Positions 1-57,738 of a stretch of DNA of 64,000 nt are shown here, one piece after another. The translations under genes were made by a program, and so were the position numbers. The notes beneath the pieces are model-generated. The model did not search any database and was not told the origin of the DNA. It saw only the letters and a list, made by a program, of their open reading frames with translations. Where the stretch lies: NCBI GenBank assembly GCA_046537845.1, contig JBKHKA010000007.1:1249-65248 (forward strand), in the 5' to 3' direction. Position 1 is the stretch's first letter. Each line of letters opens with the position of its first letter. The stretch is from Candidatus Aenigmatarchaeota archaeon. Its GTDB lineage: Archaea > Thermoplasmatota > Thermoplasmata > Halarchaeoplasmatales > Halarchaeoplasmataceae.

Positions 1-109
1 CCTCGCTAACACTTTCCTCTTTATTCACTACCTCGCCTCCGACCGCTGCAAGCATGGTGCTGATGATCAGAAGGAGGCTCATGGCGAAGACCGATATTTT
101 CCCCTTCAT
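1..109 (-). CDS. 5' end of a secreted/membrane protein gene that runs off the window (signal-peptide-like N-terminus only)
   Basis: Reverse-strand ATG at 109-107 opens MKGKISVFAMSLLLIISTMLAAVGGEVVNKEESVSE with no stop before the window edge. It has a K-rich n-region and a hydrophobic core. Too short for a family call. Confidence 0.3.
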   Translation of the reverse strand, partial: MKGKISVFAMSLLLIISTMLAAVGGEVVNKEESVSE

Positions 110-592
110 CGAACTCACTCTTCTATGAACTATATTGAAGAGCCTCTAAATATATCTTAGGAAAAGAGGATATTGTCAACTTTTTAGCCTAGCCATAACG
201 TGTTCATTCGCGGACATCTCATAGGTGGGGGATATATAGGCTAAAAAACGAGGACACGATGCCTCATGACAGCACCCATCTACACCTCAGTCTATAGGAT
301 GGGCATAAGCCACGAGGATATAGGCCTCATGGGTAGAAATACAAGCCGATTTTTGCACGTATTTTTCTAAGTAAAGAAATAATTTTCTCTTAATAACATA
401 TGAGGGTGCAGTAAAAAGGTCCCTCTCCATCAACACCCTTCACCAAACGAACTTTTCCTCCAAAAAATCAGGGGTTTCAAAGAGACTTTTAAATTACACA
501 CCAAGACCGAATAATCGAGAACCCGTTCCTAACGGGCCTCTCTTCGATCCCAAGCTCTGCTAACCACAGTTCCATCACCATGTCCTTGTGCT

Positions 593-659
593 CAGATGTA
601 GATATCCTCTTCTATGATGCCGCAGGACCGTTCATCTCCGACATAGATATCTACATCTG
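593..659 (-). terminator. Perfect 14-bp inverted repeat (stem-loop) just downstream of the giant gene stop
   Basis: cagatgtagatatc (593-606) and gatatctacatctg (646-659) are exact reverse complements separated by 39 nt. The structure starts 8 nt after the stop codon at 667-669. Function (terminator or protein-binding site) is inferred. Confidence 0.35.
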
Positions 660-666
660 GAGGTGA

Positions 667-3600
667 CTACAGGTGAAGATATCTCACTTCTTTTTCGCCT
701 TCCACCCTGAGTTCCACGGCACCGATGAGGTGGCGCTCAGGAGAGTGCCGCTCCGCCGCATCCCTCATATGATCTTTCAATCTACTTTTTTCATCCTCTC
801 CCAATTCGACCTCGCCTCTTGCATCGATTATCACCAGGGCTCTTTCACTGTGCACATGCCCTTGTCCCTGGAGCCGGATGAAAAAGTCGTCCATGGTGTT
901 ATCTATCAATCTTTCGAGTTCGCTCTCAGAAAAGTCCTGTGAGACGCTCATGTTGTAGTACCCAATCTGATCATCGATCAACAAGGGCGCTCCCTCGTCT
1001 CCGAAGGGCATCCAATGTGTATCAGAGCCGTCGGAACGGGCGGCGAAGTAAAATGAAGGCAGGTTTTCATAGTTGCCCGAGTTCATCTCCTGGACGAAAT
1101 CAACAAAGTATCTTGAGGAAGAGAGCTCATCCAAGTCCTTTGAAAACTCGTCGATGTCTATCTCGTATTCAGTTTCGTTCAAAGCGGTCGGGGTGAAACC
1201 GTGAGATACGGCGGAACGTACTAAGTCATCTTTAAACATCTCAAGGAGATATTCCAGCGAACCGGCGTCGTCGAGATCTTTTATGCTCCATCCCCTCGCT
1301 TCGGTGAAATCCATCCCCAACTCTTCGCTCAGTGCCTCCACAGCCTCCTTATAACTCATGTTTCCTTCGCCGACCTCTTCAGGAAGTTCGTTCAGAAAAG
1401 TTCGGTTGAAGGAAAGGAAAGCCCTGAACTCTTCCGCCGGCTCGTTATATTCATCTTCGAACCATTCCAGCGCCTGTTCCGTCCGATTTTCTCCCAAAAC
1501 GTCCAGGCTCAGCGCTATCGAACCTTCGCCAAAGGTAGGAAATCCGTCGTGCAGTTCTTTTACCTCTTCCATCTCGTCCCCGGCTCGGCAAGCGGCCAAG
1601 AACAGTTCAGCTCTCTTGGACTCATTAGAGGCAAGAAATTCATCGAGAACTTCCGCTTCTCTCAACACCTGGCTCCTATCCCCTAAACCGTAAAACACTT
1701 CCCGCTTCTCACGATCCACCTTTATTCCGTCCAACACTTCGCCGAACTCCTCCACCGGCCGCAGAGCGTGTTCCACCCTTTCCGGACCGTTGTGATCCTC
1801 CAGGTCATAATACACATAGCCTCCGGTACCGAGTCCGGGATCTCCTAAACCACCTTCACCATCCAGATATATCTCCCCCGTGGTCTGGAACAGAGCCGGA
1901 AAATCAAGAGAAGCGGAGTTGCCCACCAGCCCGCCTCTGCCCGTCATTCTCTGCTGAAAGGTGGACCATGTCTTCTGGTCGAGTTCGGTCCCGCGGCGGT
2001 GTGGAAGCACCTTGACGGGATAAAAATGATTCTGCTCGTCCGAAGCCGCCATGAAGACCGAGACGAAGGGACTCTCCAGCGAAGACCGGTAGCCGCTCTC
2101 GGGCAGATGAGATATCTTAGTTCCGGCCCCTCTAGGGTCGATGACCACTTCTACCCCCTCATCATCTTCAACGTGCGCCGCCGGCCCGCACACACCGGCT
2201 ATCACGTCCCTATATTCGATGAGCTCTTCAAAGCCGACCATGAAGGGGATACCGTCTTTTTCTATCAACCAGGAACTTTTTGGAATCTTATCGAAGAAGT
2301 CGAAGTCGCCGTTGTCCGTATGATCTTCATCCATGGAAAAGGCTCCCACGTATGCCTCACTCTCCCCTCCGAACAGATAGGCCTGCTCGGCACTGGTGTA
2401 TGAAGGGGCGTAAGAAAACAAAGGCTCCCCGGAGGTATATTCTCGTTGAGTGAGATTGCGTGTGTCCGGCATCTGGCTCATCACTATCTCAGACCTCACC
2501 CTCAGCACAAGATGTTCCTCCAAACTTCCCTCCGATGGAAACAGGTCTTCTTCGAGTTCGAATGACATGTTCACTTTTTCTTCCCCGCTCTCCACCTGGA
2601 TGTCCTCCTCGTAAAGTACTGTAGAGTCCGCCATCCCTTCTTCGCTCTTCATGTTCCGATAGCGGTTGTATTCACCCCACACTTCCGGTTCGAGCTTTCT
2701 TTCGCCTCCCGTCTTCACGACTTCTACCGTGAGATCGGTCTCCTCCTCACAACCCAGAACATCGAAACTCAATTCCGACCCTCTCTGGGACTCGTTGAAA
2801 ACGTTGCGGTGGAAGGACACGTTGTCCACTTCATGATCGGCCGCTGAGACCGGTATGTACCTTTTCTCCAGAAGGGGCATGGGAGTGAGCACCTCCGCCA
2901 GAGTGGTATGATCCCGAGGCGCATAACTCCGGCTCATCTCCCCCAGGGTGTACTTTTCAAGGGTGAATACTCTGCTCTCGTTGATATCCACTTTCAGTTC
3001 GATCCCGGACGTGTTGAATTTGGGAAACAAGATGGTGTTGTAGTGATCCTGATGATCCTCCGCAAAGGGGTTGATCCATTCTTTGGTAGATGAGGACGCT
3101 CCCTCGTATCCCCTGATCCCTCTACCAGAGATGTTGTCGATCTCGATCAACTGGTTTTCGCTTTCCAACTCAAGGTCAAGACCTAGAGTATAGGATGTTC
3201 CGTATTCCACAGACCTGTTGCTCCACACCGTCAACCCGCCTAGAGGTAGGTTGCAGATCGGAAGGCTCTTCACTTCGCCTCCCACTTCAAAGATATTGCC
3301 CTGCTTTTTTTCCGTACCGCTTATATTCTCTCCGTAACTCTCCATACGTCCGATTACGCTGTTCAGCGTCATCACCGCGGTCCGATAGAAACTCGCGTCC
3401 CCGAGCCCCTCCATCTCGCCACTGAATCCCTTCTCGGCCAGCTCATCGGCCGTTTCCTTCAGTTCTTCGTTCAATCCTTTCAACGCCCCTATCGAGCGGT
3501 CGAAGCTCTCCTCGACCCACCACGTCTCTATGTCGGAGAGGTCCTCCGAATGTATATCTTCCAGGTCTATATCCAGGGGTTCGATGACGGATCCACTACC

Positions 3601-6075
3601 AAAAATGTGCTCCGAGTAGGGATCGCCCCGGCCCAAAAGTATCTCCCACAATCTACTCATCTCCTCTTCAGGAGCGCCTCTCGAACCCGCTAGATCGAAG
3701 ACGTTCAGGTTCAGCCGCCTGAAAAGATCGTGAGTGTTGGTGTAGTTGAGCGGGAACAAGAACTTCGTCCTCGCATCATCTACAAAGTAACCCAGTGTCA
3801 CGTGCCCCACGGATTCATCCGGATCTTCGGGCGGCACCTCTATATCCTCGCTCAGCCGGTACTCTTCAAGGGTCCAATCATACCTGTCGGTCAATTCGGA
3901 GGAGGATGCGAAGAGAAAATCTTCTATCAGGTCCAAAGCCTCTTCGCTCTCTTTTTCATCCTCCACATCCAGCAAGAAATCGTATACCTCGTACGACCAC
4001 TTGTTCTCGGTAAAATTTTTCTGCATCGTCGTTATGTTCAAAGTGTCGTTCTTAGCGGCTTCACTCCAGCCTTCTATCTTGTTTTCGATCTCACCTTCGA
4101 TATCCTCCAATCGAGAGTAGTTATCGTTCAGCGCGGAGGTTGTGTTCTCTTCCATCTCCTCTTCGAACAGCTCTTCAGCGGACAAGTTTTCCACCAATCC
4201 CCAAGTGATATTGAGGTCCTGCCACACCTCTTCCCATTCATCCCTTTCTACATCGTGGTCCTCCATGGTCTCGTTGTAGTTCTCGATGGACTCTTCTATC
4301 GTCTCGTATTCTTCCTTTCTAGCATCATCGTATCCCTTCCTCTGGCTATCGAGTTCGTTCCTGATCTTCCCCTCGATGAAATCCTGCATCGCCCTGGTGT
4401 TGATTCTCTCTTCCGGGTCGTTCTTCTCGCTCTCCTCGTCGAGCCCCCAATCCGAGAGAAAGTAGGTGTAGTAAAATGGAACGGCACCATCGTTGGAAGA
4501 AGGGGTCTGAAAGCCCAAGGAAACTGACAGATTCCGGGCGGTGTAGAGTATCGATTCCGTCACTTTCTCGACGCCCTCTTCGCCCACCAATCTCGATCCT
4601 TCCATCCAGGGCAGCGGGCCGAGCCGGCTGATGTTCTCTTCCACGTACTCTCTCATCTCCGGTTCGTCGATCTTGAAAGCGTCGAAAGTCATGTCCATGG
4701 AGTTAGAGTAAAGGCTGACTAAAGCTCTCAGGTAACTCCTCTCTGGCCCCACCTCCGGAAGGGGAGTCACCTCTTCGGAGAGTTCTTCGAACTTCCACCT
4801 GCCGCCGTTCTCTTGAGAGAGGAGTTCTCCCTCGAACAGCCTCTTCATCATCCCAAAGGACGTGTTGACCCAATCTTCGTTTTGCTGGACGATGCCCACG
4901 AAGCCGCCTTCCAAAGACCTGTTCAGGAACGACCCGGGAACGCACATGTCCTCTGAAAGGGTGCCTTTCTCCTGGAACAGTTTCAAAACCAGCGCTTCCA
5001 GATTGACCATGTTTTCGACGCCCTGACCCAGATGATCCAGTAAGGTCTCCGAATCTATGTCGAAACTTTCAGCTGTCAGGTCCAAAAAATCTTCATCCAA
5101 TGAACGAAAGACCCGCCCCTGTTCGAGCAGCAGCGCCAACCTGCATATAGCTCTCAGCTCCTCTTCGTTCAATACATCGTGAGTCAATACCTCACCCATA
5201 TCTCTCTCATAGGCCAAAGCGAATGTCTTCCCGCGGTCCTCTTCTTCGTCCCATCCTTCATCCCTGTCCTCGCCGACACCGAAGTCTCCTGAAGTGCCGT
5301 CATAGTCATGCAGCCAGTCCGTTTCGAAGTGCTCTTCAAACGGCACTTCGAACCAGTCACCTTCCTCCCCTAAATTTCCGCCCTGGAATATCTTCATGTG
5401 AACGTACGTGGAAGTCATCAGATTCACGGTCTCCCTCATCCTCTCCGGTCTGAAGCTGTCCATGATTTCGTTCAGGAGAAAAAAGTTGGTCTGCACCGTT
5501 CGGTTTATGGTAAATCTTCTTGTGGAAAAAGTATCGGCCCTCTCGTTCCTTATGTCAGCGTGGACTGTCCTTTCTACGTTGAAGAACCCCGGCAGTTCTT
5601 CCCACCTCATCTCGTCGTTCCTCTTCTCCCTGATGTACAGAGGCATGACTTCTATGTGCGGCTCATCGCTCCGCAGCGGTCTGAGATGAAGGTGTATCTC
5701 GTAGTCGCCAACGTTTTTCGTGCCCTCGTGGTTGTTCTGAAAGTATTCCTCGAAGAGGGCGGTGGTGTTCTCTCCGACTTTCTGCTGAAGTTGAGCGGTG
5801 GTGTAACCCTCGCCGCTGTTCGTTCCCTCCTGCACATCCACGACGGCTTTTTGACCCGCCTCCCAAACCGCACTTTCCAACTCGTTTTTAAGGTCCTCGA
5901 ATCTTGCGTTCAACTCTTTTATCCCTGCGGTATCGGCCACTTCTTCCTGCGCCTGTAGCTGTATCCTGGCAAAATAGGCTCCCGCCGCCAAGGAGAGCAG
6001 CAGTATCACGATCCCTATCAACACGAAGACCATCACGGCTCTCTCATCATCCACGAGTCCATATCGAGATCTCAA
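667..6075 (-). CDS. Giant (~1802 aa) acidic surface protein with a prepilin-like N-terminus; paralog of 28618-32889
   Basis: Uninterrupted ORF 667-6204. I prefer the TTG at 6075, which overlaps the upstream stop as TTGA and follows a GGAGGGG Shine-Dalgarno-like box. This gives LRSRYGLVDDERAVMVFVLIGIVILLLSLAAG, a charged leader plus one hydrophobic helix that parallels RRRLDDRGKIPFALVGVVLIIL of the 1423-aa protein. The two share the block RLALLLEQGRVF / NLALLLEAARLY. Many N-x-S/T sequons. No catalytic motif recognised. Confidence 0.8.
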   Translation of the reverse strand: MRSRYGLVDDERAVMVFVLIGIVILLLSLAAGAYFARIQLQAQEEVADTAGIKELNARFEDLKNELESAVWEAGQKAVVDVQEGTNSGEGYTTAQLQQKVGENTTALFEEYFQNNHEGTKNVGDYEIHLHLRPLRSDEPHIEVMPLYIREKRNDEMRWEELPGFFNVERTVHADIRNERADTFSTRRFTINRTVQTNFFLLNEIMDSFRPERMRETVNLMTSTYVHMKIFQGGNLGEEGDWFEVPFEEHFETDWLHDYDGTSGDFGVGEDRDEGWDEEEDRGKTFALAYERDMGEVLTHDVLNEEELRAICRLALLLEQGRVFRSLDEDFLDLTAESFDIDSETLLDHLGQGVENMVNLEALVLKLFQEKGTLSEDMCVPGSFLNRSLEGGFVGIVQQNEDWVNTSFGMMKRLFEGELLSQENGGRWKFEELSEEVTPLPEVGPERSYLRALVSLYSNSMDMTFDAFKIDEPEMREYVEENISRLGPLPWMEGSRLVGEEGVEKVTESILYTARNLSVSLGFQTPSSNDGAVPFYYTYFLSDWGLDEESEKNDPEERINTRAMQDFIEGKIRNELDSQRKGYDDARKEEYETIEESIENYNETMEDHDVERDEWEEVWQDLNITWGLVENLSAEELFEEEMEENTTSALNDNYSRLEDIEGEIENKIEGWSEAAKNDTLNITTMQKNFTENKWSYEVYDFLLDVEDEKESEEALDLIEDFLFASSSELTDRYDWTLEEYRLSEDIEVPPEDPDESVGHVTLGYFVDDARTKFLFPLNYTNTHDLFRRLNLNVFDLAGSRGAPEEEMSRLWEILLGRGDPYSEHIFGSGSVIEPLDIDLEDIHSEDLSDIETWWVEESFDRSIGALKGLNEELKETADELAEKGFSGEMEGLGDASFYRTAVMTLNSVIGRMESYGENISGTEKKQGNIFEVGGEVKSLPICNLPLGGLTVWSNRSVEYGTSYTLGLDLELESENQLIEIDNISGRGIRGYEGASSSTKEWINPFAEDHQDHYNTILFPKFNTSGIELKVDINESRVFTLEKYTLGEMSRSYAPRDHTTLAEVLTPMPLLEKRYIPVSAADHEVDNVSFHRNVFNESQRGSELSFDVLGCEEETDLTVEVVKTGGERKLEPEVWGEYNRYRNMKSEEGMADSTVLYEEDIQVESGEEKVNMSFELEEDLFPSEGSLEEHLVLRVRSEIVMSQMPDTRNLTQREYTSGEPLFSYAPSYTSAEQAYLFGGESEAYVGAFSMDEDHTDNGDFDFFDKIPKSSWLIEKDGIPFMVGFEELIEYRDVIAGVCGPAAHVEDDEGVEVVIDPRGAGTKISHLPESGYRSSLESPFVSVFMAASDEQNHFYPVKVLPHRRGTELDQKTWSTFQQRMTGRGGLVGNSASLDFPALFQTTGEIYLDGEGGLGDPGLGTGGYVYYDLEDHNGPERVEHALRPVEEFGEVLDGIKVDREKREVFYGLGDRSQVLREAEVLDEFLASNESKRAELFLAACRAGDEMEEVKELHDGFPTFGEGSIALSLDVLGENRTEQALEWFEDEYNEPAEEFRAFLSFNRTFLNELPEEVGEGNMSYKEAVEALSEELGMDFTEARGWSIKDLDDAGSLEYLLEMFKDDLVRSAVSHGFTPTALNETEYEIDIDEFSKDLDELSSSRYFVDFVQEMNSGNYENLPSFYFAARSDGSDTHWMPFGDEGAPLLIDDQIGYYNMSVSQDFSESELERLIDNTMDDFFIRLQGQGHVHSERALVIIDARGEVELGEDEKSRLKDHMRDAAERHSPERHLIGAVELRVEGEKEVRYLHL

Positions 6076-6605
6076 TCTGTCCCCTCCCTCGTTATGAATA
6101 TATGATTTTCGTACCTGGCACCGTCGTTCAAACGCAGCATTATCAATCTTAGATCCCTTTCTCCCGCCTCCAATTCCAGCTCCGGATTCATCTCGTCCCT
6201 CCATTCCATCTCATCCTTCCCTAAAGTACCGCTCTCGTTCATCCCCCCGGGCCCCCATAGGTGTACATCGGCGCCCAAACCCTCTACCGTGTCCCTGCCG
6301 TCCTGCTTCAATCTAACATAACCTTTAGTTATCTGGACGGTGTAAGGATCTCCCCCGACTTCTGGAGGTAGGTAGATACCCTCATTATCTTCATGAAAAG
6401 TGATCCTCTGGACCATCTCATCCGCATCGGTATTCTCCATGTCGGTTATTATCTGAGAGAGCTTCCGAGCTCGATTCTCCAATTCCTCCTGCTCGAACTG
6501 ATCCATCTGATGATAGAAAAAACCCGTGACAGAGGAGACCAATATGATCACCACGGCTATGAGGACTATCTTCGATTGGAGCCATTGTAATATATTCATG
6601 GGCAC
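6072..6605 (-). CDS. Small N-terminally anchored protein (177 aa), pilus-accessory/pilin-like; paralog of 36568-37080
   Basis: N-terminal helix SKIVLIAVVIILVSSVTGFF. Blocks shared with the 170-aa protein: LQWLQSKIV/LDWALSKII, KLSQII/SLSQEI, VHLWGP/VHLWDP and the C-terminal HIFI/HTFIF. Stop overlaps the start of the giant gene. Confidence 0.7.
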   Translation of the reverse strand: MPMNILQWLQSKIVLIAVVIILVSSVTGFFYHQMDQFEQEELENRARKLSQIITDMENTDADEMVQRITFHEDNEGIYLPPEVGGDPYTVQITKGYVRLKQDGRDTVEGLGADVHLWGPGGMNESGTLGKDEMEWRDEMNPELELEAGERDLRLIMLRLNDGARYENHIFITREGTD

Positions 6606-6725
6606 TTCACTCAGAGATAGGAGATGAAAAGGATATATGCTTTTTATGTTTTGCGGTGTATACTTAAAGATCGTGAAAATATAAAAATCACGAAACCTTT
6701 TCTAGGTCCAAAAAAGGTGATAGAG

Positions 6726-18404: not shown

Positions 18405-18513
18405 TGTCGGGGACGGGGTTTGAACCCGCGACCTCTAGATTTCTCAGGTCTGCTCGGGTGGAGCATAAACTTCCCTATGAGTCTAGCGCTCCGCCAGGCT
18501 GAGCTACCCCGAC
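18405..18513 (-). tRNA. tRNA with CAU anticodon (elongator Met or Ile2) carrying a 35-nt intron after position 37
   Basis: Hand-folded. Acceptor GTCGGGG/CCCCGAC, D arm GCTC-AGCCTGGCG-GAGC, anticodon stem CTAGA/TCTAG, loop CTCATA|intron|A. Variable loop AGGTC, T arm GCGGG-TTCAAAC-CCCGT, discriminator A, no encoded CCA. Intron = 18441-18475. Mature length 74 nt. It has G1:C72 and lacks the three G:C pairs in the anticodon stem, so it is not an initiator. Confidence 0.85.
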
Positions 18514-23803: not shown

Positions 23804-26500
23804 ATGAAAATATTTGATGAGAAAAAAGTTGGAGACAAAGTCGAGAAAGAAATAATACCTGTCAGAAAAAAATTTCTAGAGGGGCCTAATGTATATGCTT
23901 TATTCCCTGTGATGGAAGCTTATATTGATCTAGGTGATTGGGTGGAGACCCCTTCCAACGTTGAGTTTGCTGATAAACTCGTTGAGCTTCTACCCGAACT
24001 GAGGACTCATACCTGTTCAAAAGGCTATCCCGGGGGGTTCATAGAAAGGTTAATGGAAGGAACTTATCCAGCCCATATAATAGAACACGTTGCTCTTTCT
24101 ATCCAGAATACTGTAGGAACCAAAGTGAATTTTGGGAAAAGCAGAAGAGAAGACGGCAGCGTCTACAAGATAATCATGGATTATGAATATCCTTCATTAG
24201 GGGCTCTAGCTTTCGAGGAATCTATAAAGCTAGTGAACAAGCTATTGGCAGGTGAGAAAGACCTGAAGAGTTTCGTGGAGAACGTGTTGAAAGAGGCAGA
24301 ACGGGCATATCTGAAAGAGAAGATAGGGCCCAGCACCTCTGCCATATTGAAGGCCGCCAAAAAGATGGACATACCTTACAAGCGCGCGGGCGAAGAATAC
24401 AGCCTCTTCTCTCTAGGGTGGGGTAAAAATAGGAAGATGATATGGGGGCCTGAGACATCTGAAACTTCGTTGATAGGCTCAGAGATCGGTCAGGAAAAAG
24501 ACATATGCAAAGAACTCCTCCATGATTATGGTCTTCCTGTACCGCGAGGTGAGGTGGCTAACTCTCTAAAAGAAGCCCTGGATATCGCAGAACATATAGG
24601 ATATCCCGTGGTGATCAAACCCGTCAGCGGTCATCACGGCAATGGTGTTTTCGTTAACCTAAAGAATCCAGACGAACTCAGTGAAGCTTATTCACTCTCC
24701 GAAGAGTTTTCGTCACATATTCTAGTAGAAAGATACCTTCAAGGATACGACTACCGTGTTCTGCTCGTCGATCACAAAGTGGTAGCGGTGGCGAAAAGGA
24801 TTCCCGCTCACGTTGTGGGAGATGGTTCTTCGACTATCAGGGAGCTGGTAGAGCTAGCCAACAAAGATCCGAAGAGAGGAGAAGATCATGATTCAGTCCT
24901 GACCAAGATATCCCTTGATGACGAAGCCAGGATCAATTTGGAACGGCAGAATCTGGGTCTTGAATCCGTTCCAGCTAACGGAAAAAAGATATGGTTGAAA
25001 GATACCGCCAATATAAGCACGGGAGGCACCGCTGAAGATCACACCTCGGACATACATCCCACGCTTAAAAAGACACTGGAAAGGACCAGCAGGATCATAG
25101 GGCTGGACCTAATGGGGATCGATCTGATAGCGGAAGATATCTCTCTGCCAGCTGAAAAGATGAATTGGGGGATAATCGAGGTGAATTCAAGTCCGGGTTT
25201 GAGGATGCATATATCCCCTTCTTCCGGAGAACCGCAGCCAGTGGGAAAGAAAATAATAGAACACCTGTACCCCTCCGGGGAAGGAAGGATCCCTCTGGTA
25301 GCTATCACTGGCACCAACGGAAAGACCACCACCTCTAGGATAGTTGAATGGCTCGCGAGAAATCAGGGTCATCATACTGGTTTGGCGGTCACCGGGGGCA
25401 TCTGGTCCAACGGCTTAAAAGTTGCCGATGGTGATACTACGGGGCCTTGGAGCGCAAACGTAGTTCTGCAGGATCCGGAAGTAGACTATGCTGTTTTGGA
25501 GACAGCTAGAGGCGGAATCTTGAAAAGAGGTCTGGGCTTCGACAAGTGCGACGTAGGGGTGGTACTGAATATCCGAGAAGACCACATCGGTCTCGATGGT
25601 ATTGAAGATACAGATGACATATTCTGGGCGAAATCGCTCCTGGTCGAAGTGACCGATAAAGAGGGCTACGCTGTTATAAACGGGAACGACGATTATGCGA
25701 AAAAGTTGATAGAAAGGGCAAAAGGTACGCCCATCCTGTTCGGCGTAGAAAAGAACGACCTGATAAAAGAGCATATAGATAAAGGTGGAGAGGCCTTTGT
25801 AAAGGAGGGAGACGAACTGGTAGCTTACCTGATAAACGGAGGGCGCCAAAAGATAGCGGGTGTTAATGATATACCATACCTTTTGGGCGGGGTAACAATG
25901 CTGGTGGAGAATACGTTAGCGGCCATGGCTTCAGGATACGCTAGCGGACTTAAGATCGACAAATTCAAAACAGCTTTGAAGAAGTTCCAAACCGACGAAG
26001 AAACGACCCCCGGCAGGCTGAACGTGTTCGAGATAGCGGATAGAAATGTCGTACTGGATTATGCCCATAATCCTGACAGCCTTCAGAAGCTGAGTGAATT
26101 CACCGACCGTCTCTCCGACGATAATAACAACATCTTAGTCTTCACAGGGGTTAGTGATAGAAACGATGAAAGTATCCTTGAAAGTGGAAAAGTGGCAGCT
26201 CAGAAATTCGAAACATTGGTATTCACGGAAAGAGACCACCTGAGGCGGGGCAGGAAAAAAGGAGAGATCACTTCCCTCCTCAAAAAGGGTAGTGACTCGG
26301 TGGGAAAAGATCCAGTGATCATAGATGATCCAGATAAAGCTCTGGGCTTCGCTATGAGCCACAGTAAACCAGGAGACATGATAGTCTGCGCGAATCTAGA
26401 TTTTAATTCTGAAGACCTGGTCCAGATATTTGGTCCTAGAAAGATATGTGCTCATACTGGAGAAACGGGTGAAAAAGGTATCGGGACCTTGAGCGTGTGA
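23804..26500 (+). CDS. cphA: Cyanophycin synthetase (898 aa)
   Basis: CphA N-domain (LRTHTCSKGYPGGFIERLMEGTYPAHIIEHVALSIQN), an ATP-grasp middle domain, and a Mur-ligase-like domain with P-loop ITGTNGKTTTSR and DYAHNP. Length is typical of CphA1. Confidence 0.9.
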   Translation: MKIFDEKKVGDKVEKEIIPVRKKFLEGPNVYALFPVMEAYIDLGDWVETPSNVEFADKLVELLPELRTHTCSKGYPGGFIERLMEGTYPAHIIEHVALSIQNTVGTKVNFGKSRREDGSVYKIIMDYEYPSLGALAFEESIKLVNKLLAGEKDLKSFVENVLKEAERAYLKEKIGPSTSAILKAAKKMDIPYKRAGEEYSLFSLGWGKNRKMIWGPETSETSLIGSEIGQEKDICKELLHDYGLPVPRGEVANSLKEALDIAEHIGYPVVIKPVSGHHGNGVFVNLKNPDELSEAYSLSEEFSSHILVERYLQGYDYRVLLVDHKVVAVAKRIPAHVVGDGSSTIRELVELANKDPKRGEDHDSVLTKISLDDEARINLERQNLGLESVPANGKKIWLKDTANISTGGTAEDHTSDIHPTLKKTLERTSRIIGLDLMGIDLIAEDISLPAEKMNWGIIEVNSSPGLRMHISPSSGEPQPVGKKIIEHLYPSGEGRIPLVAITGTNGKTTTSRIVEWLARNQGHHTGLAVTGGIWSNGLKVADGDTTGPWSANVVLQDPEVDYAVLETARGGILKRGLGFDKCDVGVVLNIREDHIGLDGIEDTDDIFWAKSLLVEVTDKEGYAVINGNDDYAKKLIERAKGTPILFGVEKNDLIKEHIDKGGEAFVKEGDELVAYLINGGRQKIAGVNDIPYLLGGVTMLVENTLAAMASGYASGLKIDKFKTALKKFQTDEETTPGRLNVFEIADRNVVLDYAHNPDSLQKLSEFTDRLSDDNNNILVFTGVSDRNDESILESGKVAAQKFETLVFTERDHLRRGRKKGEITSLLKKGSDSVGKDPVIIDDPDKALGFAMSHSKPGDMIVCANLDFNSEDLVQIFGPRKICAHTGETGEKGIGTLSV

Positions 26501-26539: not shown

Positions 26540-27364
26540 TCAACCATGGTTCTCTGGGAACCATGGTTTCCTCTCTTTCAGATCGAATCCGCAGCCGTTT
26601 GAAAGGATATGTACAGTGATCCCCTCCGCATGGAGAGGTGAATCCGTATCTATTTCAGGAACGTTAGTATGCTGGATCTGCTTTCCATCCACCACCACTA
26701 TACTCCTGCTGCCAATCACTCTGAATTCATTTTTTTCCAGGTCCCAGACCGCAGCGGTATCTTCTCCCAGGCCGATCCCCAGACTCACCGGGTTTTCCAC
26801 CACGACGTGGACAAGTCGGGGGAATCTACCTCTCGCAGTGAAATGTGTGTCCAATACAACCGTTGAGAGAAAACCGAGACCGCGGGTCAATTCCACGACG
26901 CCGGTCATCAACGCGTTTTCACTCTCACCGTATGATATCATGAGGTCGGCCATGCAAACAGAGCCAGCGCTTGTCCCTGCTATCAGGGCGCCCTCCTCGT
27001 GTCTTTCTCTTATGGTCTTGAGGATTTCCGTTCCACCCAACAAGGTGGTGATCCTGAGTTGGTTACCCCCTGTAAAAAAGAAAGCATCGGCCTCTGAAGC
27101 TTTTTTAATGAGGTTTTTATCGTTAGACTCGGCTCTGTTCTCAGGGTCTATGATGACGGTTTCGGCACCCAATTTTTTAAAGATTTCAGAATACTTCCCC
27201 GCACTTTTCTCGGGCTCTTGGCTGGCAGTGGGCAGGATCGCTATCACTGGTTCGTTTTCACACCCTCCTCGGGTCAATTCACAAAATTCCTTCAAGATGG
27301 GGCTGTCCTCTGCCTGACTTATGTTTCCACCGATGGTCATCAACAAGCCCTTGGATTTAGACAT
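26540..27364 (-). CDS. cphB: Cyanophycinase (peptidase S51) (274 aa)
   Basis: FFTGGNQLRI and nucleophile motif IAGTSAGSVCMAD. Size and order of blocks are typical of CphB. Convergent with cphA. Confidence 0.85.
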   Translation of the reverse strand: MSKSKGLLMTIGGNISQAEDSPILKEFCELTRGGCENEPVIAILPTASQEPEKSAGKYSEIFKKLGAETVIIDPENRAESNDKNLIKKASEADAFFFTGGNQLRITTLLGGTEILKTIRERHEEGALIAGTSAGSVCMADLMISYGESENALMTGVVELTRGLGFLSTVVLDTHFTARGRFPRLVHVVVENPVSLGIGLGEDTAAVWDLEKNEFRVIGSRSIVVVDGKQIQHTNVPEIDTDSPLHAEGITVHILSNGCGFDLKERKPWFPENHG

Positions 27365-27517
27365 GATGTTTACCTTTTTGTTAAAGGAGAAAGTTCTTTA
27401 CTTTTAAGTTTTCGCACCTCCATCAATGGTTTTGAGTCATTTTGACCCCGACTTTGTGAGAAAGATTTATATTCAAAATCCTTTTTTATATGAGTGCGAG
27501 TTAGAGAGCAGAAATGT

Positions 27518-28006
27518 ATGAAAAGAAAAATTGACGACCGAGGTGTCGTAGGTTTTTACGAAGATGTACCCGCCCTTCTCATCGTCGTAGTTGCAACTGT
27601 TATATTTTTGGGCAGTATGTATTCTGCGGTACAGAGACACGGCCAAAAGAGTTCGGTCTCTGACTTCGAAAGAGATGCTATCGAATTCGCCGAGGCAGTG
27701 AAAGCTTCGCCGCTCCTCTTATACGAAAGCAATGTAGGACAGTTCGACGCCACTAAAGTTCAGTATATAGGTTCTGAAAATTTAACACAATCTCTCAACT
27801 ACCCCGATTTCTATTATAGAATCACCCTTGCCGATGTGAGCAATTATTCTATACGATACAACCAGACATGGTCCAGGGAGCCCGATTTTAATTTTACTGA
27901 GGAACATTATGAAGAGGGGAGAAAGGTGATCAATCTTTCGGTGAACATAGTGGTCGACAGCGATGAAATACATCCTGCTCGACTGCGGGTGGAGGTGTGG
28001 AAATGA
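27518..28006 (+). CDS. Small pilin-like protein (162 aa) with a charged leader and one N-terminal hydrophobic helix
   Basis: MKRKIDDRGVVGFYEDVPALLIVVVATVIFLGSMY. The DDRG motif is shared with the 1423-aa protein. The body is beta-rich with N-x-S/T sequons. Start moved from GTG 27494 to ATG 27518. Confidence 0.65.
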   Translation: MKRKIDDRGVVGFYEDVPALLIVVVATVIFLGSMYSAVQRHGQKSSVSDFERDAIEFAEAVKASPLLLYESNVGQFDATKVQYIGSENLTQSLNYPDFYYRITLADVSNYSIRYNQTWSREPDFNFTEEHYEEGRKVINLSVNIVVDSDEIHPARLRVEVWK

Positions 28007-28527
28007 GACTTTTGGTCAGATCAAATAAGGGTCAATCGAGTCTTTTAGACGCATTGATATTTTTCAGCATCGCATTGATCGCTTCCGCGATCTTGATCTT
28101 CGCACCATTCCCTGGAAGCTCTCCGGAAACGAAGGAAGTGATGAGACTTTACGGTGAGAGTACTCTCGATTCTTACCTTCACTCGACTCTCAACCACACC
28201 TCCTACGAATACCAAAATGAAACGATCCATCTCGACGATAGAACGGTATCTGAATTGGTGGTGGAGAACCTATATCTGAGAGATAACACAGATGTGAATA
28301 ATGGCAGTTTGAGAGAGGGTATAGAGAGAGATCTCAATGAAACATTAGATGCTCTGGTCATATCACAATATGATTACAATTTTACCGCCTGGTCTTCTGA
28401 AAACGCTTCTTTCGGGTACGGCCAACAGACCAAAGGTGTGGATGAGATGAACTCCTTTTCACAAGATTTACACACACCGGATCAAAACGCGACCTATACT
28501 GCGAACCTCAAGATCTGGCTGGCGTGA
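28003..28527 (+). CDS. Small pilin-like protein (174 aa) with a class III signal-peptide-like N-terminus
   Basis: MRLLVRSNKG|QSSLLDALIFFSIALIASAILIFA has a basic leader, a G-Q junction and a hydrophobic helix. Its ATG overlaps the upstream stop as ATGA. Confidence 0.7.
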   Translation: MRLLVRSNKGQSSLLDALIFFSIALIASAILIFAPFPGSSPETKEVMRLYGESTLDSYLHSTLNHTSYEYQNETIHLDDRTVSELVVENLYLRDNTDVNNGSLREGIERDLNETLDALVISQYDYNFTAWSSENASFGYGQQTKGVDEMNSFSQDLHTPDQNATYTANLKIWLA

Positions 28528-32914: not shown

Positions 32915-35900
32915 TTACTCTTCTTCATCCAGGTCGGCACCGCAGGCCCAACACTTATCCGCCCCGGGTTCTAGTTTATTATTGCAGACAGGACATTTTA
33001 TTTTCTCTTTCTCTTCAACTTCACCCTCAGTTTTTTCTTCAGACCCCGGCTGCTCTTCTTGGTCAAGTCCTGACCCTTTGTGGCTCCATATGCCTCCCGA
33101 GGAAACCTTATCAGACTCGGATTCTTCTTCCAGCATCTTCGTCACTTCATCCTCTAATTCCTCTTCACCTTCGCTCTCTTCATCATCCAATGCTGGGCCA
33201 ACGGGTTCAGATCCCACTTCTGATCCCGTGAAAGAGCTATCTGGTTTCTCCGTGGTGACGCCTTCTTCACTGAAAGATCTTACTTCCGCATAATCTCTTC
33301 CGCATCCTAGACACTCTCCTTCGACCATGAGACAATCGTTGTGGTAAGCATTTCCACACTGGCATTCTAAGCTGCTCTCGGGATCTATCGGGCTGTTGCA
33401 GATATCACAGTCTTTTGATGGCTTAGGCCGTGATTTGGAGGAATATATACCCATACCAGCAGCACCAGCCCTAGCCGCTCCGCTCTCACCCATATAGTTC
33501 CCGTCTTGAGGCCTAGGCGGTGAAGACCTTGATGAAGATGCCCTAGACGTAGAGACTCTAGTCGGTCTAGTCGATCTCTTTTTCTTTAGTGATTTCAATT
33601 TTTCGCCTTTTTTCTGCCTGATCTTGGAAAATTTCGATTCTTTAACCGGAAGCAGTTTTTCTTGTTCCTCCCGTCGCCTTTTCCAGTAAACGAATAACCC
33701 TATCAATATAACTGCGATAGGTATCGGGAGGAGATACCACCAATTTATCCCAACGGGGCCAACTTTGGTTTCTGACTGGTATTCGTTACCGGCGGCATCT
33801 TCTACAACGATCTGGTAATCCACATCACTGAATCCCACATCATCCCCTGATATAGTCGCCTTATACTCCCCACCGGCTCTTTTCATCTCCTTTTCTTTCC
33901 AACCGTCATCCTCTTCATATCTGAGGATAACTCTCTCTACGGAGCTCGCTCCACTGTCTATAGAAGCTGTCACGGTCATCTCGTTTTTCCAAACCGTATC
34001 CGAGGTGTCAAAGTCTTTCAAAGAGGGTGTGGTCAGATCTATCTTCAGCCACTCTGTTTTTCCTTCTTCGTTCAGGTTTCCCGCATTATCAAGTGCTCTT
34101 ACACCAAGATAGAACTGGCCTTCTCTATCGATCATAAAACTCCCTTGATATTCCTCCCAATCTCTATCTTCGCCCAATCTATACTGCAGTATCCTTACTC
34201 CTGATCCCCCTTCATCGTCAGCATATATCTTCACCTCGGGAGGAGCGTTATACCACCCGTTGCTATCGGGCTCGGAGATTTCGTATTTGATCTCAGGCTC
34301 CTGTGTATCTACTTTAATCTGAGATGTGTCGGCATTTTCTTCATCTGAGCTTTTCAGACCTGCATTGTTCTCGGCTAGATATTCTACGGTGTGTTCGCCG
34401 TTCTCAAGTTTTATCTCCACCACGTCAGATTCGGCTTTTTGCCATTCACCTGTTTCATCATCACTGATTATCCTGTACTTTATCGAAGACACTCCCGAGT
34501 TACCGTCCTCCGCGCTTATGTTGACCGCTGGCTCCTCTATATGCCAATCGTTTTCCCCCCCTGGGTTTGGAGAATTGAGTTCTACAGATGGAGCTGTTTT
34601 ATCAATCCTTATCACCTGGAGTTTTTCTTCTTCCACATTCCCTGCGGTGTCTACAGCCCTGTAATACAGACTGTTCTCCCCCTCTTCTCCTATGGTTATG
34701 CTTCCACCGTCACCCTCTATTTCCTCCCATCCCTCGCCTACTCGATATTCTATATGATCTACTCCTGAATAGCCGTCTTCAGAACTAAAGCTCACCTCTA
34801 CATCCCCTATGTACCAGCCATCTTCTCCCTCGGGGCCGTCCAAAGCCACATGAGTAGTGGGTTCGATAACATCTATCTTGAAGCTTTCATCATTTATATC
34901 TTCTTGATTTCCTCCATTATCTATGGAATAGAACTGAACCTCGTGGGTTCCGGAACCTGAAACAGTGGTACCGCCGCTGGCACCATCGATCTCCTGCCAC
35001 TCCCCATCGTCTATCTTGTACAATATACTGTCGACTCCTGAATGGGCGTCCTCCGCACTGAACTGTAGCTCGACATCGCTCCTGTACCAACCGTTCTGAG
35101 GACCCTCGCCTTGTAATGTAAGGGAAGTATCCGGCGGATCTTTATCTATGGTAAAGGAGTATTGATTGGATTTCTCTTCGTTCCCAGCCACGTCTACCGC
35201 ATATATGTAATACTCCACCTCGCTGCCTGCGTCCTGATCAGGGATATCACCGCTGTACTCGTCACCAGTTGTAGAATTCATTGGGCTGGCCTGCCAAACA
35301 CCTCCGTCGACCCTATACCTCACCTCGAGTGAATTCTCGTCGACCCCGCTGTGCTGGTCGGTTATCCTCGCCGTGATCGTATATGGGCCATAACCTTCCC
35401 ACCCTTCGACAGGATCGTGTTCTATCTCGGGAGAATATGTATCCTCCATGTATTCCACATTGACCTCGCTCAAAGAGGGCGTGATCTGCCCGTTCGATGT
35501 TTCAAAGGTGGCTCTGTACTGTATGTATCTGTCCACTGGACTCGGCACCTCACCACCGTTCGAGGCCTCTGCCCAATCTGACCAGCTGTTACCGTCGGGA
35601 GATGTCCTGGTCTCCATAGTGAGTGAAGTACCTGAAGGTTCATCCGCATCCCAGTGGATGGTACCCCAATCATACATCCCATCTCCGGTATCATAAACGC
35701 TTGATACTAAGGTTCCAGAATCCTCGTGGGTTTCGACTATCGCCTCCATGGTCGTTATCACATCGTCATCCGCCCAATCCATAGTTTGCGGACTCGTTGT
35801 GATCTCCCCATTATAATAGTATTGACCATTTTCTCCAGTGAAACCTACGGTGCTCAGATCTCCCAGTGTATATTGACCCAACTTGTCACCTCCCTGTACA

Positions 35901-36451
35901 GGGATGGGGAGTTGATCACTACTAGTATCCCAAGTCTTGATGGTCCAAGATTCTGGATCAAAGGTTTCAGTTTCAGCTGAAAAATATTCATCTTGGTTAC
36001 CTGTTGGGCGTAATATCTTGAGCTTGAAAGCAGAATGGCGGTCGGCACAGGTAACCGTGAATTCGATTATCTCACCACCTCGGTCGATATTGAAATCATC
36101 TCGACCTGGAAAAGTAGTATATCCAGGATCCCAATAATAATCGTCGTTAGGCGACTCCGCCGCTCCCACCTGAAACTCATACGTATCCAGCATCACTTCG
36201 CCTGAAGAAGTTGTGGTATCCAAATTTGTTAAGTCACCGGATTCAAAATCGGACTGTGTAGTCTGGGTCCATGTTTCCGTGGATAAGGGTTTCCGAGGTT
36301 TCTCAGCTGTTGGGGATACATTGATAGTTGAATTCTCCTGAGGAGTCGAAGCCGAGGAGGGCATGGACATAAAAACGACTAACCCTACAGAAGTCAATAA
36401 GATACCTATGGTTAGGATTATCAAGGATTTTTCGAACGATTTATTTTTCAT
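32915..36451 (-). CDS. Single-pass receptor/adhesin-like protein (1178 aa): signal peptide, N-terminal globular domain, six Ig-like repeats, TM helix, cytoplasmic C4HC3 zinc finger, acidic linker, terminal zinc ribbon
   Basis: Signal MKNKSFEKSLIILTIGILLTSVGLVVF. Repeats follow the consensus D-x-x-x-P...GWY...D-x-x-SGV...Y-R...W...AGN. TM helix WWYLLPIPIAVILIGLFVYW followed by KRRREEQE. Finger CDIC-x11-CQC-x4-H-x2-C-x6-CLGC. C-terminus CPVCNNKLEPGADKCWACGADLDEEE. Confidence 0.85.
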   Translation of the reverse strand: MKNKSFEKSLIILTIGILLTSVGLVVFMSMPSSASTPQENSTINVSPTAEKPRKPLSTETWTQTTQSDFESGDLTNLDTTTSSGEVMLDTYEFQVGAAESPNDDYYWDPGYTTFPGRDDFNIDRGGEIIEFTVTCADRHSAFKLKILRPTGNQDEYFSAETETFDPESWTIKTWDTSSDQLPIPVQGGDKLGQYTLGDLSTVGFTGENGQYYYNGEITTSPQTMDWADDDVITTMEAIVETHEDSGTLVSSVYDTGDGMYDWGTIHWDADEPSGTSLTMETRTSPDGNSWSDWAEASNGGEVPSPVDRYIQYRATFETSNGQITPSLSEVNVEYMEDTYSPEIEHDPVEGWEGYGPYTITARITDQHSGVDENSLEVRYRVDGGVWQASPMNSTTGDEYSGDIPDQDAGSEVEYYIYAVDVAGNEEKSNQYSFTIDKDPPDTSLTLQGEGPQNGWYRSDVELQFSAEDAHSGVDSILYKIDDGEWQEIDGASGGTTVSGSGTHEVQFYSIDNGGNQEDINDESFKIDVIEPTTHVALDGPEGEDGWYIGDVEVSFSSEDGYSGVDHIEYRVGEGWEEIEGDGGSITIGEEGENSLYYRAVDTAGNVEEEKLQVIRIDKTAPSVELNSPNPGGENDWHIEEPAVNISAEDGNSGVSSIKYRIISDDETGEWQKAESDVVEIKLENGEHTVEYLAENNAGLKSSDEENADTSQIKVDTQEPEIKYEISEPDSNGWYNAPPEVKIYADDEGGSGVRILQYRLGEDRDWEEYQGSFMIDREGQFYLGVRALDNAGNLNEEGKTEWLKIDLTTPSLKDFDTSDTVWKNEMTVTASIDSGASSVERVILRYEEDDGWKEKEMKRAGGEYKATISGDDVGFSDVDYQIVVEDAAGNEYQSETKVGPVGINWWYLLPIPIAVILIGLFVYWKRRREEQEKLLPVKESKFSKIRQKKGEKLKSLKKKRSTRPTRVSTSRASSSRSSPPRPQDGNYMGESGAARAGAAGMGIYSSKSRPKPSKDCDICNSPIDPESSLECQCGNAYHNDCLMVEGECLGCGRDYAEVRSFSEEGVTTEKPDSSFTGSEVGSEPVGPALDDEESEGEEELEDEVTKMLEEESESDKVSSGGIWSHKGSGLDQEEQPGSEEKTEGEVEEKEKIKCPVCNNKLEPGADKCWACGADLDEEE
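33310..33347. repeat. 38-nt block identical to 38234-38271 (zinc-finger coding region of the two paralogs)
   Basis: gacactctccttcgaccatgagacaatcgttgtggtaa is present at both positions, verified base by base. Confidence 0.95.
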
Positions 36452-36567: not shown

Positions 36568-37080
36568 TCAATCTTCAAAGATGAAAGTATGATATTGGGT
36601 CTCACCGCTGACTATCAATTCGCACCTCATCACTCTGAAACCCTCTCCTGAGACAAGATCAAGATAACGGTGCTCGTCATCGATCTCCGCAAGCTCCGTT
36701 TCGTTGGTGGTATAATTGATCTGTGATGGATCCCAAAGATGTACCCTTTCACTATCTTCAGCGGTGATATCGGATGATGCGAGTTTACCTTGCGCTTCAA
36801 GACTCACCTCACTAGAACTTATCCTGATCTCATATTCTTCCCCATCTATCTCCGATGGTAGTTCCACAGCGGAAGCGTTCTCCCTGAAGGTGAAATAAAG
36901 TGTAGAATTAGAATGGGTGTTAGAAAGTTCATTCACTCTAGAAGAAATCTCTTGAGAGAGGCTCTTTAACCTAGTTTCATCTATATCCTCTCTTGCAGCT
37001 GAAAAAACGAAGATTGAAAATATCACCAAAGCCATGGTGAAGATAGAGACGATGATTTTTGAAAGTGCCCAATCCAACAT
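36568..37080 (-). CDS. Small N-terminally anchored protein (170 aa); paralog of 6072-6605
   Basis: MLDWALSKIIVSIFTMALVIFSIFVF helix. Shared blocks with the 177-aa protein are listed under that feature. Start codon lies 1 nt after the upstream stop. Confidence 0.7.
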   Translation of the reverse strand: MLDWALSKIIVSIFTMALVIFSIFVFSAAREDIDETRLKSLSQEISSRVNELSNTHSNSTLYFTFRENASAVELPSEIDGEEYEIRISSSEVSLEAQGKLASSDITAEDSERVHLWDPSQINYTTNETELAEIDDEHRYLDLVSGEGFRVMRCELIVSGETQYHTFIFED

Positions 37081-37081
37081 C

Positions 37082-37618
37082 TTACCACTCTAATACATCC
37101 AGCTCGACATAGTAATCGTTTTCGACGCCGTCTTCATTCATATCGAAATCCGCGGGCTTTTTAACTATAGATATCCGCTGATTCCCTCCTGGGATTATCA
37201 GGGTATCGTTATCCGGCGAGCACATAGGGATGCCCTTACGACCGTGGGTGACTAATATCGATTTTTCAGGTTCCTCTCTGAGTTGATAATAGATGGCTCT
37301 TGTGTGAACAGAACCGGACAAAGGAGCACCCACCTTTACCTCTTCAGTCTCGGGAGGAAATTCTATTTCTAAAACCGTGCTCGCATTCACACCTTGGATA
37401 TACACGCTCTCCACGGCAGATGCTATCTGATTTACTTCTTGGGAGAGCTGTTCTTCTGCACTGTTAGTGCGGTAGTGAGACAGGGCGGAGAGCATAGACG
37501 GTATAGCTATAGCGAGTACGATAGCTATTATCAAAAGCCGGAAAGGATAATCCATAACTCCTTCTTCGGAGCGTTTCAAGTTCCTTGGATCGCATCTTTT
37601 CTTTTCTATTCCATCCAT
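37082..37618 (-). CDS. Small pilin-like protein (178 aa)
   Basis: Charged leader MDGIEKKRCDPRNLKRSEEG followed by VMDYPFRLLIIAIVLAIAIPSMLSAL and a beta-rich body. Confidence 0.65.
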   Translation of the reverse strand: MDGIEKKRCDPRNLKRSEEGVMDYPFRLLIIAIVLAIAIPSMLSALSHYRTNSAEEQLSQEVNQIASAVESVYIQGVNASTVLEIEFPPETEEVKVGAPLSGSVHTRAIYYQLREEPEKSILVTHGRKGIPMCSPDNDTLIIPGGNQRISIVKKPADFDMNEDGVENDYYVELDVLEW

Positions 37619-57737: not shown

Positions 57738-57738
57738 G

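Follow-up and report, generated by a model that had tools for sequence, protein, structure and literature searches.

Archaeal modules made of a pilus ATPase and a TadC protein use different pilin sets, some of which are encoded elsewhere, and their evolution has been described as modular and combinatorial in the available text of a survey of these systems (Makarova et al. 2016, PMC4858521). In bacteria, modular minor pilins carry grafted modules presumed to act in adhesion at the tip, and the largest of those surveyed reaches 860 residues (Raynaud et al. 2021, PMC8179133). Here, we analyzed a stretch of 64,000 nucleotides (nt) of contig JBKHKA010000007.1 (positions 1,249 to 65,248, forward strand; hereafter the window), whose host would be a haloalkaliphilic archaeon of the Thermoplasmatota represented by metagenome-assembled genomes (MAGs) labelled Candidatus Natronoplasma. 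At positions 667 to 6605, the window carries a gene pair encoding a giant protein of 1802 amino acids (aa) and a small partner, at a distance from a pilus locus endowed with its own ATPase. We propose, with a little more confidence than doubt, that this pair belongs to a second pilin set located away from the machinery, in which the giant would be an N-glycosylated modular pilin-like subunit and probably a tip adhesin.

Like the pilin sets acting in trans (PMC4858521), the set considered here is devoid of machinery genes and paralogous to the set of a pilus locus; the available text of that survey describes neither a five-family set nor a pilin-like component of 1400 to 1800 aa, and its main text makes no mention of Thermoplasmata. 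The giant resembles Streptococcus sanguinis PilB/PilC, CofB, and GspK in having an N-terminal pilin signal and helix, grafted modules, and a few small minor pilins alongside (PMC8179133). It differs from these bacterial modular pilins by the lack of sequence similarity or confident fold similarity, by its archaeal type of signal, and by the size of the graft, 1440 aa compared to 860 aa for the largest entire bacterial protein. A further parallel is offered by PilY1/PilC and by the large DUF2341 proteins of methanogen loci, huge surface proteins tied to a few small pilin-like proteins and suggested, in the available text of the archaeal survey (PMC4858521), to act as the filament cap. PilY1/PilC, however, are not pilins and lack the N-terminal pilin helix (PMC8179133), and neither a PilY1 beta-propeller nor a DUF2341 domain was detected with Pfam in the giant or in its 13 family members. 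The principle is already published, and what differs here is the scale, the five-family composition, and the nature of the 1440-residue part. A literature search by the DUF names of the families involved returned no paper mentioning them.

Results

Organization of the gene pair

Both open reading frames (ORFs) lie on the minus strand, and the length of 1802 aa read from the TTG start of the giant, as estimated in a preliminary description of this DNA, agrees with the deposited protein model. The features of the pair and of its surroundings are as follows.

667..6075, minus strand: giant gene, 1802 aa, TTG start at 6075..6073
6072..6599, minus strand: partner gene, 175 aa, DUF7266-like, with an N-terminal membrane helix, ATG at 6599
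6081..6088, minus strand: GGGAGGGG, ribosome-binding-like motif within the end of the partner gene, 5' of the giant TTG
6600..6725, no strand: intergenic stretch shared with a divergent nucleoside triphosphatase (NTPase) gene, likely promoter region of the pair
110..666, no strand: ORF-free spacer of 557 nt, from the giant stop to a GLUG-domain gene

The reading frame of the giant is intact over 5409 nt. Its TTG start overlaps the TGA stop of the partner as TTGA, which corresponds to an overlap of 4 nt between the two genes, and the GGGAGGGG motif stands 6 to 13 nt 5' of this TTG. Comparison of the junction across related loci (L002 to L017) showed that the giant starts with TTG not only in the window but also at 11 of the 12 related loci, and revealed a purine-rich motif of the GG(A/G)GGT type followed by the TTGA overlap in the same proportion (11/12). 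Moreover, a DUF7266-like partner directly precedes the giant at all loci examined. Translation of the partner and the giant is coupled by the conserved TTGA overlap, a link suggesting that the pair acts together, and the conserved weak TTG start may keep the giant-to-partner ratio low. Two other starts were rejected. The mechanical ORF of the giant, of 1845 aa, begins at an ATG farther upstream and shares 132 nt with the partner gene; it does not represent the real gene. The GTG start of the 177-aa partner first reported lies 2 codons too far upstream, as judged by the N termini of homologues, which begin with MNILQW or MIQW and place the start at the ATG at 6599 (175 aa).

The intergenic stretch 6600..6725 is A+T-rich and likely holds the putative promoter of the pair. 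On its other side, the divergent NTPase gene has its annotated start at about 6726 (170 aa annotated in locus L003 versus 204 aa for the mechanical ORF). The pair region ends at 6605 and the nearest gene of the pilus locus begins at 27494, leaving a gap of 20.9 kilobases (kb), close to the 21 kb of the preliminary description; the ATPase and TadC-like genes are 36 to 39 kb away, with housekeeping genes in between. No mobile-element or defence gene flanks the pair, whose upstream neighbours are syntenic housekeeping genes.

Homology between the giants and between their partners

The pilus locus of the window contains the following genes, in which a slash marks the putative cleavage site of a pilin-type signal.

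27494..28006, plus strand: DUF7287-like pilin-like gene, 170 aa, DDRG/VVGF signal, weak PF23958 match
27997..28527, plus strand: pilin-like gene, 176 aa, KG/Q signal, paralog of the second-set genes of ~190 aa
28618..32889, plus strand: giant gene, 1423 aa (DUF7286), paralogous to the N-terminal ~360 aa of the 1802-aa giant
36568..37080, minus strand: DUF7266-like gene, 170 aa, paralogous to the 175-aa partner
37082..37618, minus strand: DUF7311-like pilin-like gene, 178 aa, PF23993 match with an E value of 5e-4
42172..44196, minus strand: TadC/PilC-like membrane protein gene, PF00482 (T2SSF) match with an E value of 3.4e-5 and 24.2 bits for a cut-off of 25.2
44198..46018, minus strand: secretion ATPase gene, PF00437 (T2SSE) match with an E value of 5e-16

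Pairwise blastp between the 1802-aa and 1423-aa giants is marginal (E values of 0.03 and 0.27). Family profiles, built from 13 and 12 proteins, respectively, gathered out of 5.8 billion, were aligned by hhalign with a probability of 98.1% and an E value of 1.1e-13 between residues 6-366 of the former and 4-328 of the latter. N-terminal slices gave 98.8% (E value of 6e-17), both alignments covering about 300 columns, and profiles without the membrane helix 97% (E value of 8e-11), compared to 0.1% for the reversed-sequence control. The LALLLE block is the strongest segment common to both families, reaching an E value of 6e-9 alone. The two strings quoted in the preliminary description as a common N terminus and a common internal block both fall inside this alignment, and the similarity it announced persists well beyond the N-terminal helix. 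By contrast, the C-terminal parts (1436 versus 1095 residues) gave an hhalign probability below 1%; nothing is alignable past residue ~366, and the ~400 additional residues of the larger giant can therefore not be assigned mostly to the C-terminal half, as had been suggested. On profile comparison, the two giants are homologous over their N-terminal ~360 aa only, i.e., the N-terminal fifth of the 1802-aa protein. For the other ~1440 aa, public data yielded no relatives apart from about 20 proteins.

It is this profile-profile test that ties the 1802-aa family to the DUF7286-bearing 1423-aa family. When PF23957 (DUF7286) was tested directly, neither the 1802-aa protein nor any of the 13 family members had a Pfam match at E values of 0.05 to 0.1 or less, and the 1423-aa giant reached 30.7 bits for a cut-off of 27, only over model positions 2-62 of 1000. 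The paralogy proposed between the partner and the 170-aa protein of the pilus locus (36568..37080, minus strand) stands, with a blastp E value of 8e-15 and 25% identity over 171 aa. Both proteins match PF23928 (DUF7266) significantly but under its cut-off of 27.6 bits, the partner at 23.6 bits (E value of 4.7e-5) and its paralog at 24.1 bits (E value of 3.3e-5).

Signal, topology, and predicted glycosylation of the giant

Four parts of the giant can be delineated on the minus strand.

5956..6075, minus strand: residues 1-40, class III-like pilin-type signal MRSRYGLVDDERA/VMVFVLIGIVILLL
4978..6075, minus strand: residues 1-366, N-terminal region homologous to the N terminus of the 1423-aa DUF7286 protein
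5068..5223, minus strand: residues 285-336, conserved LALLLEQxRxFRSxD block
670..4977, minus strand: residues 367-1802, lineage-specific extracellular part

According to the FlaFind literature, class III pilin signals combine a short charged N terminus, a G or A at the cleavage site, and a hydrophobic helix at least about 20 residues long. By inspection, the N terminus of the giant fits this type IV pilin-like layout of charged residues, G/A, and hydrophobic helix. The family consensus is D-E-[KR]-[GA]/[VMI]-M-x-F, where D10, E11, M15, and F17 never vary and the hydrophobic stretch is always preceded by G or A; A314, L316, and E318 are likewise invariant within the LALLLE block. Judging from this motif, a prepilin peptidase would probably cleave after the conserved G/A.

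The giant has a single hydrophobic segment (residues 6-40), is acidic (21.7% D+E), and ends with a conserved RYLHL; no internal repeats were found in it. It carries 30 N-glycosylation sequons compared to 9.4 expected from shuffled sequences (z of 6.9), distributed from residue 103 to residue 1708, and several of them are kept in 8 to 12 of the 12 family members, N515, N622, and N1094 being present in all 12. A similar enrichment characterizes the 1423-aa giant (28 sequons versus 9.3 expected, z of 7.1), and none was found in the cytoplasmic proteins of the window. The spread of the sequons together with the single N-terminal helix argues that essentially the whole chain lies outside the cell.

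Past the homologous region, the predicted secondary structure is helical over residues 367-900, beta-rich over ~930-1360, helical over ~1470-1680, and alpha/beta over ~1705-1802. AlphaFold2 was run on shallow family alignments, separately for residues 1-900 and 881-1802. Residues ~11-200 were modelled with moderate confidence, with a block predicted local distance difference test (pLDDT) score mostly about 60 to 87 and dips near 31-50 and 149-159, and with helices predicted at 9-46, 50-85, and 93-115 followed by a five-stranded sheet, whose strands lie at 118-195. Two other parts were also moderately confident, ~1470-1580 (helical) and ~1705-1802 (alpha/beta).

A duplicated five-member set and its distribution in the genome

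ORFs were called in 17 loci and searched with the window proteins and the family models. The usual locus consists of the DUF7266-like partner followed by the giant, of a convergent DUF7287-like gene of ~160 aa followed by a gene of ~190 aa related to the one starting at 27997 (27997-like), and of a DUF7311-like gene of ~165 aa. Hence, where the preliminary description saw a two-gene module, 10 of the 12 species-representative loci hold 4 or 5 genes of this second set; a two-gene arrangement as in the window is also found at L004, L005, L007, and L008.

For every one of the five families, the pilus locus of the window holds a paralog (27494, 27997, 28618, 36568, and 37082), which makes the second set a duplicated five-member subunit set. 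By phmmer, the 27494 product matches the ~160-aa members of the second set with E values of 1e-6 to 1e-12, and the 37082 product matches the ~165-aa members with E values of 7e-6 to 1e-9. For the 27997 product, the phmmer E values range from 9e-9 to 4e-5 in 6 of 11 second-set members (blastp E value of 6e-7), and the other 5 gave no phmmer match at E values of 1e-3 or less. A pilin-type N terminus, i.e., charge, G/A, and hydrophobic helix, is present in four of the five families, those of the giant and of the DUF7287-like, 27997-like, and DUF7311-like proteins.

The 1802-aa and 1423-aa giants are alike in their N-terminal ~360 aa, their single helix, their roughly threefold number of sequons, and the four small pilin-like families alongside. 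The 1802-aa giant differs in its dissimilar 1440 aa, in the lack of a direct Pfam match, in its location away from the ATPase and TadC genes, and in its gene order, with the DUF7266-like gene directly upstream and overlapping by 4 nt.

In sister genomes, the small pilin-like genes begin at the position equivalent to the spacer 110..666. In this spacer, no remnant of a small gene was found by tblastn of window positions 1..666 and no RNA family by Rfam, and a promoter/terminator scan gave nothing above background, with a single weak terminator-like site. A search with the DUF7287-like profile retrieved a partial protein, ACOC55_01305, which shares its tag prefix with the deposited 1423-aa protein (ACOC55_00580), indicating that both genes come from one MAG. 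This partial gene sits at the end of contig JBMCVD010000028.1, 7 kb in length, on which a second-set DUF7311-like gene (E value of 1e-71) is also present. The product of the partial gene is 58% identical to the second-set copy of a sister genome, but its identity to the main-locus copy is only 37%. Of the three small genes absent beside the giant, two are thereby located on another contig of the MAG. On one contig of a sister genome, about 14 kb separate the giant from the small-gene pair, with a gene in between for a 3015-aa protein with a subtilase domain and many PQQ-type beta-propeller repeats, and two genes of ~430 aa (L024 9641..15390, PWHU01000067.1), and this spot seems to gather large surface-protein genes. 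Most likely, then, the second set is complete here and split by inserted surface-protein genes, a view that depends on the MAG binning.

Two other assemblies with the giant locus both end inside the left GLUG gene, which is a paralog of the gene found at the other end of the window (E value of 2e-18) and appears to be an assembly-breaking repeat.

1..109, minus strand: GLUG-domain gene, running off the window
62515..63963, minus strand: GLUG-domain surface protein gene, right end

Relatives and conservation of the giant

A near-identical deposited protein (P0001, 3 residue differences) comes from a MAG that bears the label Candidatus Natronoplasma sp. and belongs to the Thermoplasmatota. When 1.84 billion cluster representatives were searched exhaustively by HMMER with a profile of residues 1-900, 23 proteins were recovered. 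Full-length relatives of 1732 to 2002 aa account for 11 of them; other matches are larger (2236 to 2732 aa) and have only their first 480 to 700 residues in common with the giant, and in a last group only the first 120 to 400 residues are in common. The distant giant relatives combine sub-threshold DUF7286 N-terminal matches with varied extracellular domains, namely CARDB, GEVED, PKD, Big_5, LTD (lamin-tail), transglutaminase-elicitor, and InlB B-repeat. As judged by these architectures, a common N-terminal module is fused to unrelated C-terminal parts, and the modularity foreseen in the preliminary description is real.

Two of these relatives connect the family to machinery genes. P0031 (2002 aa, 890 N-terminal residues in common) and P0032 (2499 aa, 650 residues in common) have a DUF7266-like gene directly upstream and a T2SSE ATPase gene within 10 kb (loci L020 and L021), and one of the two loci also holds the DUF7287-like and 27997-like pair. 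This location beside an ATPase, together with the partner, argues that the stand-alone set of the 1802-aa lineage derives from a pilus-locus set. Loci with T2SSE, T2SSF, and several small proteins also harbour distant relatives of the 1423-aa giant.

The 1802-aa family is present in 12 of 185,579 species-representative genomes, all of them MAGs of Thermoplasmata/Thermoplasmatota, and the isolate or sample names that could be interpreted point to sediments of soda lakes or of the Great Salt Lake. The full-length homologues (n = 11) are 32 to 57% identical to the giant of the window, evenly along the length and with few gaps. Between two near-identical strains, the giant gene shows 11 synonymous versus 3 non-synonymous codon differences. 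This full-length conservation and the synonymous excess argue for a gene under purifying selection and not for a remnant.

As a separate matter of labelling, a fragment 100% identical to the 27494 product is deposited as "Candidatus Aenigmatarchaeota archaeon" (P0061 and P0052). The same genes also occur in MAGs labelled Natronoplasma or Thermoplasmatota, and at least one bin or bin label must thus be wrong.

Discussion

We propose a model in which the full set would comprise the DUF7266-like partner, the DUF7286-like giant, and the DUF7287-like, 27997-like, and DUF7311-like proteins. Without an ATPase or platform gene of its own, this set would presumably be assembled by the ATPase and TadC-like proteins encoded at 42 to 46 kb, unless a similar pair from another part of the genome takes this role. 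By means of its pilin-type signal and helix, the giant would enter the membrane, where a prepilin peptidase would probably trim it after the conserved G/A, and it would be N-glycosylated. Its conserved N-terminal ~360 residues would then bring it together with the small pilin-like proteins, leaving the 1440-residue part exposed on the cell exterior, most likely at the filament tip, as an adhesin or surface-contact module.

Several observations weigh against this model. At none of the 17 loci does the 1802-aa family have an ATPase or TadC gene within 10 kb, no Peptidase_A24/prepilin peptidase gene was seen among the window ORFs scanned, and the DUF7266-like partner family lacks the G/A cleavage motif. 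With 1802 aa, the giant is over twice the size of the largest bacterial modular pilin (860 aa), and its incorporation into a filament is not assured. It has no match in Pfam, not even DUF7286, nor in NCBIfam or among PDB sequences. The AlphaFold2 models are of low confidence (mean pLDDT of 47.7 for residues 1-900 and 43.4 for 881-1802), and no fold is assignable to the giant from them. Foldseek searches of the PDB with both low-confidence models gave nothing below an E value of 0.005 and no pilin or adhesin match, the best match to a solved pilin having an E value of 0.1. The top Foldseek matches were generic helical or Ig-like proteins with a root mean square deviation around 20 Å and were treated as uninformative.

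Part of these observations would also be expected if the giant were a stand-alone envelope glycoprotein, anchored by an uncleaved N-terminal helix and contributing to the surface coat of a wall-less or S-layer cell, with the small proteins as membrane partners and no filament. Besides the isolation from machinery genes at 17 loci, the partner devoid of a cleavage motif, and a size extreme for a pilin, this reading would accommodate the single N-terminal helix with no further membrane segment and the strong sequon enrichment over the whole chain. It accounts poorly for the paralogy of all five families to genes of the ATPase/TadC locus, for the distant giant relatives that adjoin a T2SSE ATPase, and for the invariant G/A before the helix in four families, which a mere anchor would not need. 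We regard it as a serious alternative, though clearly a less probable one than the modular pilin-like subunit.

We also considered, as a bolder and rather unlikely idea, that the DUF7286-type giants and their four small partners, rather than decorating an ordinary pilus, form a distinct five-part surface organelle, made of a short pseudopilus-like stalk and of one glycoprotein head of 150 to 200 kDa, exchangeable between paralogous sets. Such an organelle might be the main envelope or contact structure in these halophilic Thermoplasmatota. If this is true, no known pilin-type subunit would exceed the 1802-aa protein in size, and this protein would define a new class of type IV filament.

In the preliminary description, the modularity was understood as that of interchangeable giant cargos. 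In such a view, the giants would be exported in a type II secretion-like manner by the pilus machinery, with the partner as a chaperone or adaptor. The variable C-terminal parts behind a common N-terminal region and the translational coupling of the giant to a small partner could be viewed in this way. The common region, however, opens with a pilin-type signal and helix and not with a Sec or Tat signal, and the genes conserved along with the giant are pilin-like throughout, with no chaperone-like gene among them; type II substrates are not known to carry pilin-like N termini. The notion of cargo is thus unsupported because the conserved part, i.e., signal, helix, and G/A, suits a subunit built into or anchored to a filament rather than a secreted substrate, and we consider export of this kind unlikely. 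Finally, that the pair is a decaying, non-functional remnant of a duplicated pilin set deprived of its three small partners, as the ORF-free 557-nt spacer in their place and the recurrence of the two-gene arrangement at four other loci might suggest, is very improbable and was rejected on the basis of the intact frame, of the uniform full-length conservation in 12 genomes, and of the synonymous-to-non-synonymous ratio between the two strains, the absent genes being moreover found on another contig of the MAG and 14 kb off on one contig in a sister genome.

If the proposed modular pilin-like subunit is confirmed, archaeal modular pilins would far exceed bacterial sizes, with a docking module of ~360 residues followed by more than 1400 lineage-specific residues, and five-gene subunit sets would be duplicated and held away from the machinery. 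In an uncultured lineage of halophiles known from metagenomes only, a single pilus motor could then serve alternative tip complexes. Without opening a new field, our study ties an orphan family of about 20 giants to DUF7286 by remote N-terminal homology and provides a context for both.

Other features of the window

About 10 kb from the pilus ATPase gene, a cluster of DUF58 and DUF4129 genes occupies 55834..58602 (minus strand). DUF58 proteins are presumably part of a module of the vWA/MoxR kind, and any link to the pilus is tentative. Proteins with vWA domains and MoxR/GvpN ATPases are listed as pilus-associated regulators in the available text of the archaeal survey (Makarova et al., PMC4858521).

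Rfam detected a transfer RNA (tRNA) at 18405..18513 (minus strand), whose 109 nt for a 71-position model suggest an intron; ARAGORN detected no tRNA anywhere in the window. The Rfam match and the gene content of the window are consistent with an archaeal origin.

The pilus locus encodes two more giants, of 1178 aa (32915..36451, minus strand) and 1248 aa (37638..41384, minus strand), which are paralogs with 42% identity. Both carry Big_13 Ig-like domains and, near residues 900-945, a second membrane helix, along with a long acidic tail and a zinc ribbon at the C terminus. Their final 26 residues are 92% identical (KCP[VI]CNN.LEPGADKCWACGADLDEEE). Unlike the DUF7286-type giants, they show no sequon enrichment.

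Beside the pilus locus, a cyanophycin synthetase-like gene (23804..26500, plus strand) encodes Cyanophycin_syn, ATP-grasp, and Mur ligase domains. It is adjoined by a Peptidase_S51 gene of the cyanophycinase type (26540..27364, minus strand), a pair unusual in archaea.

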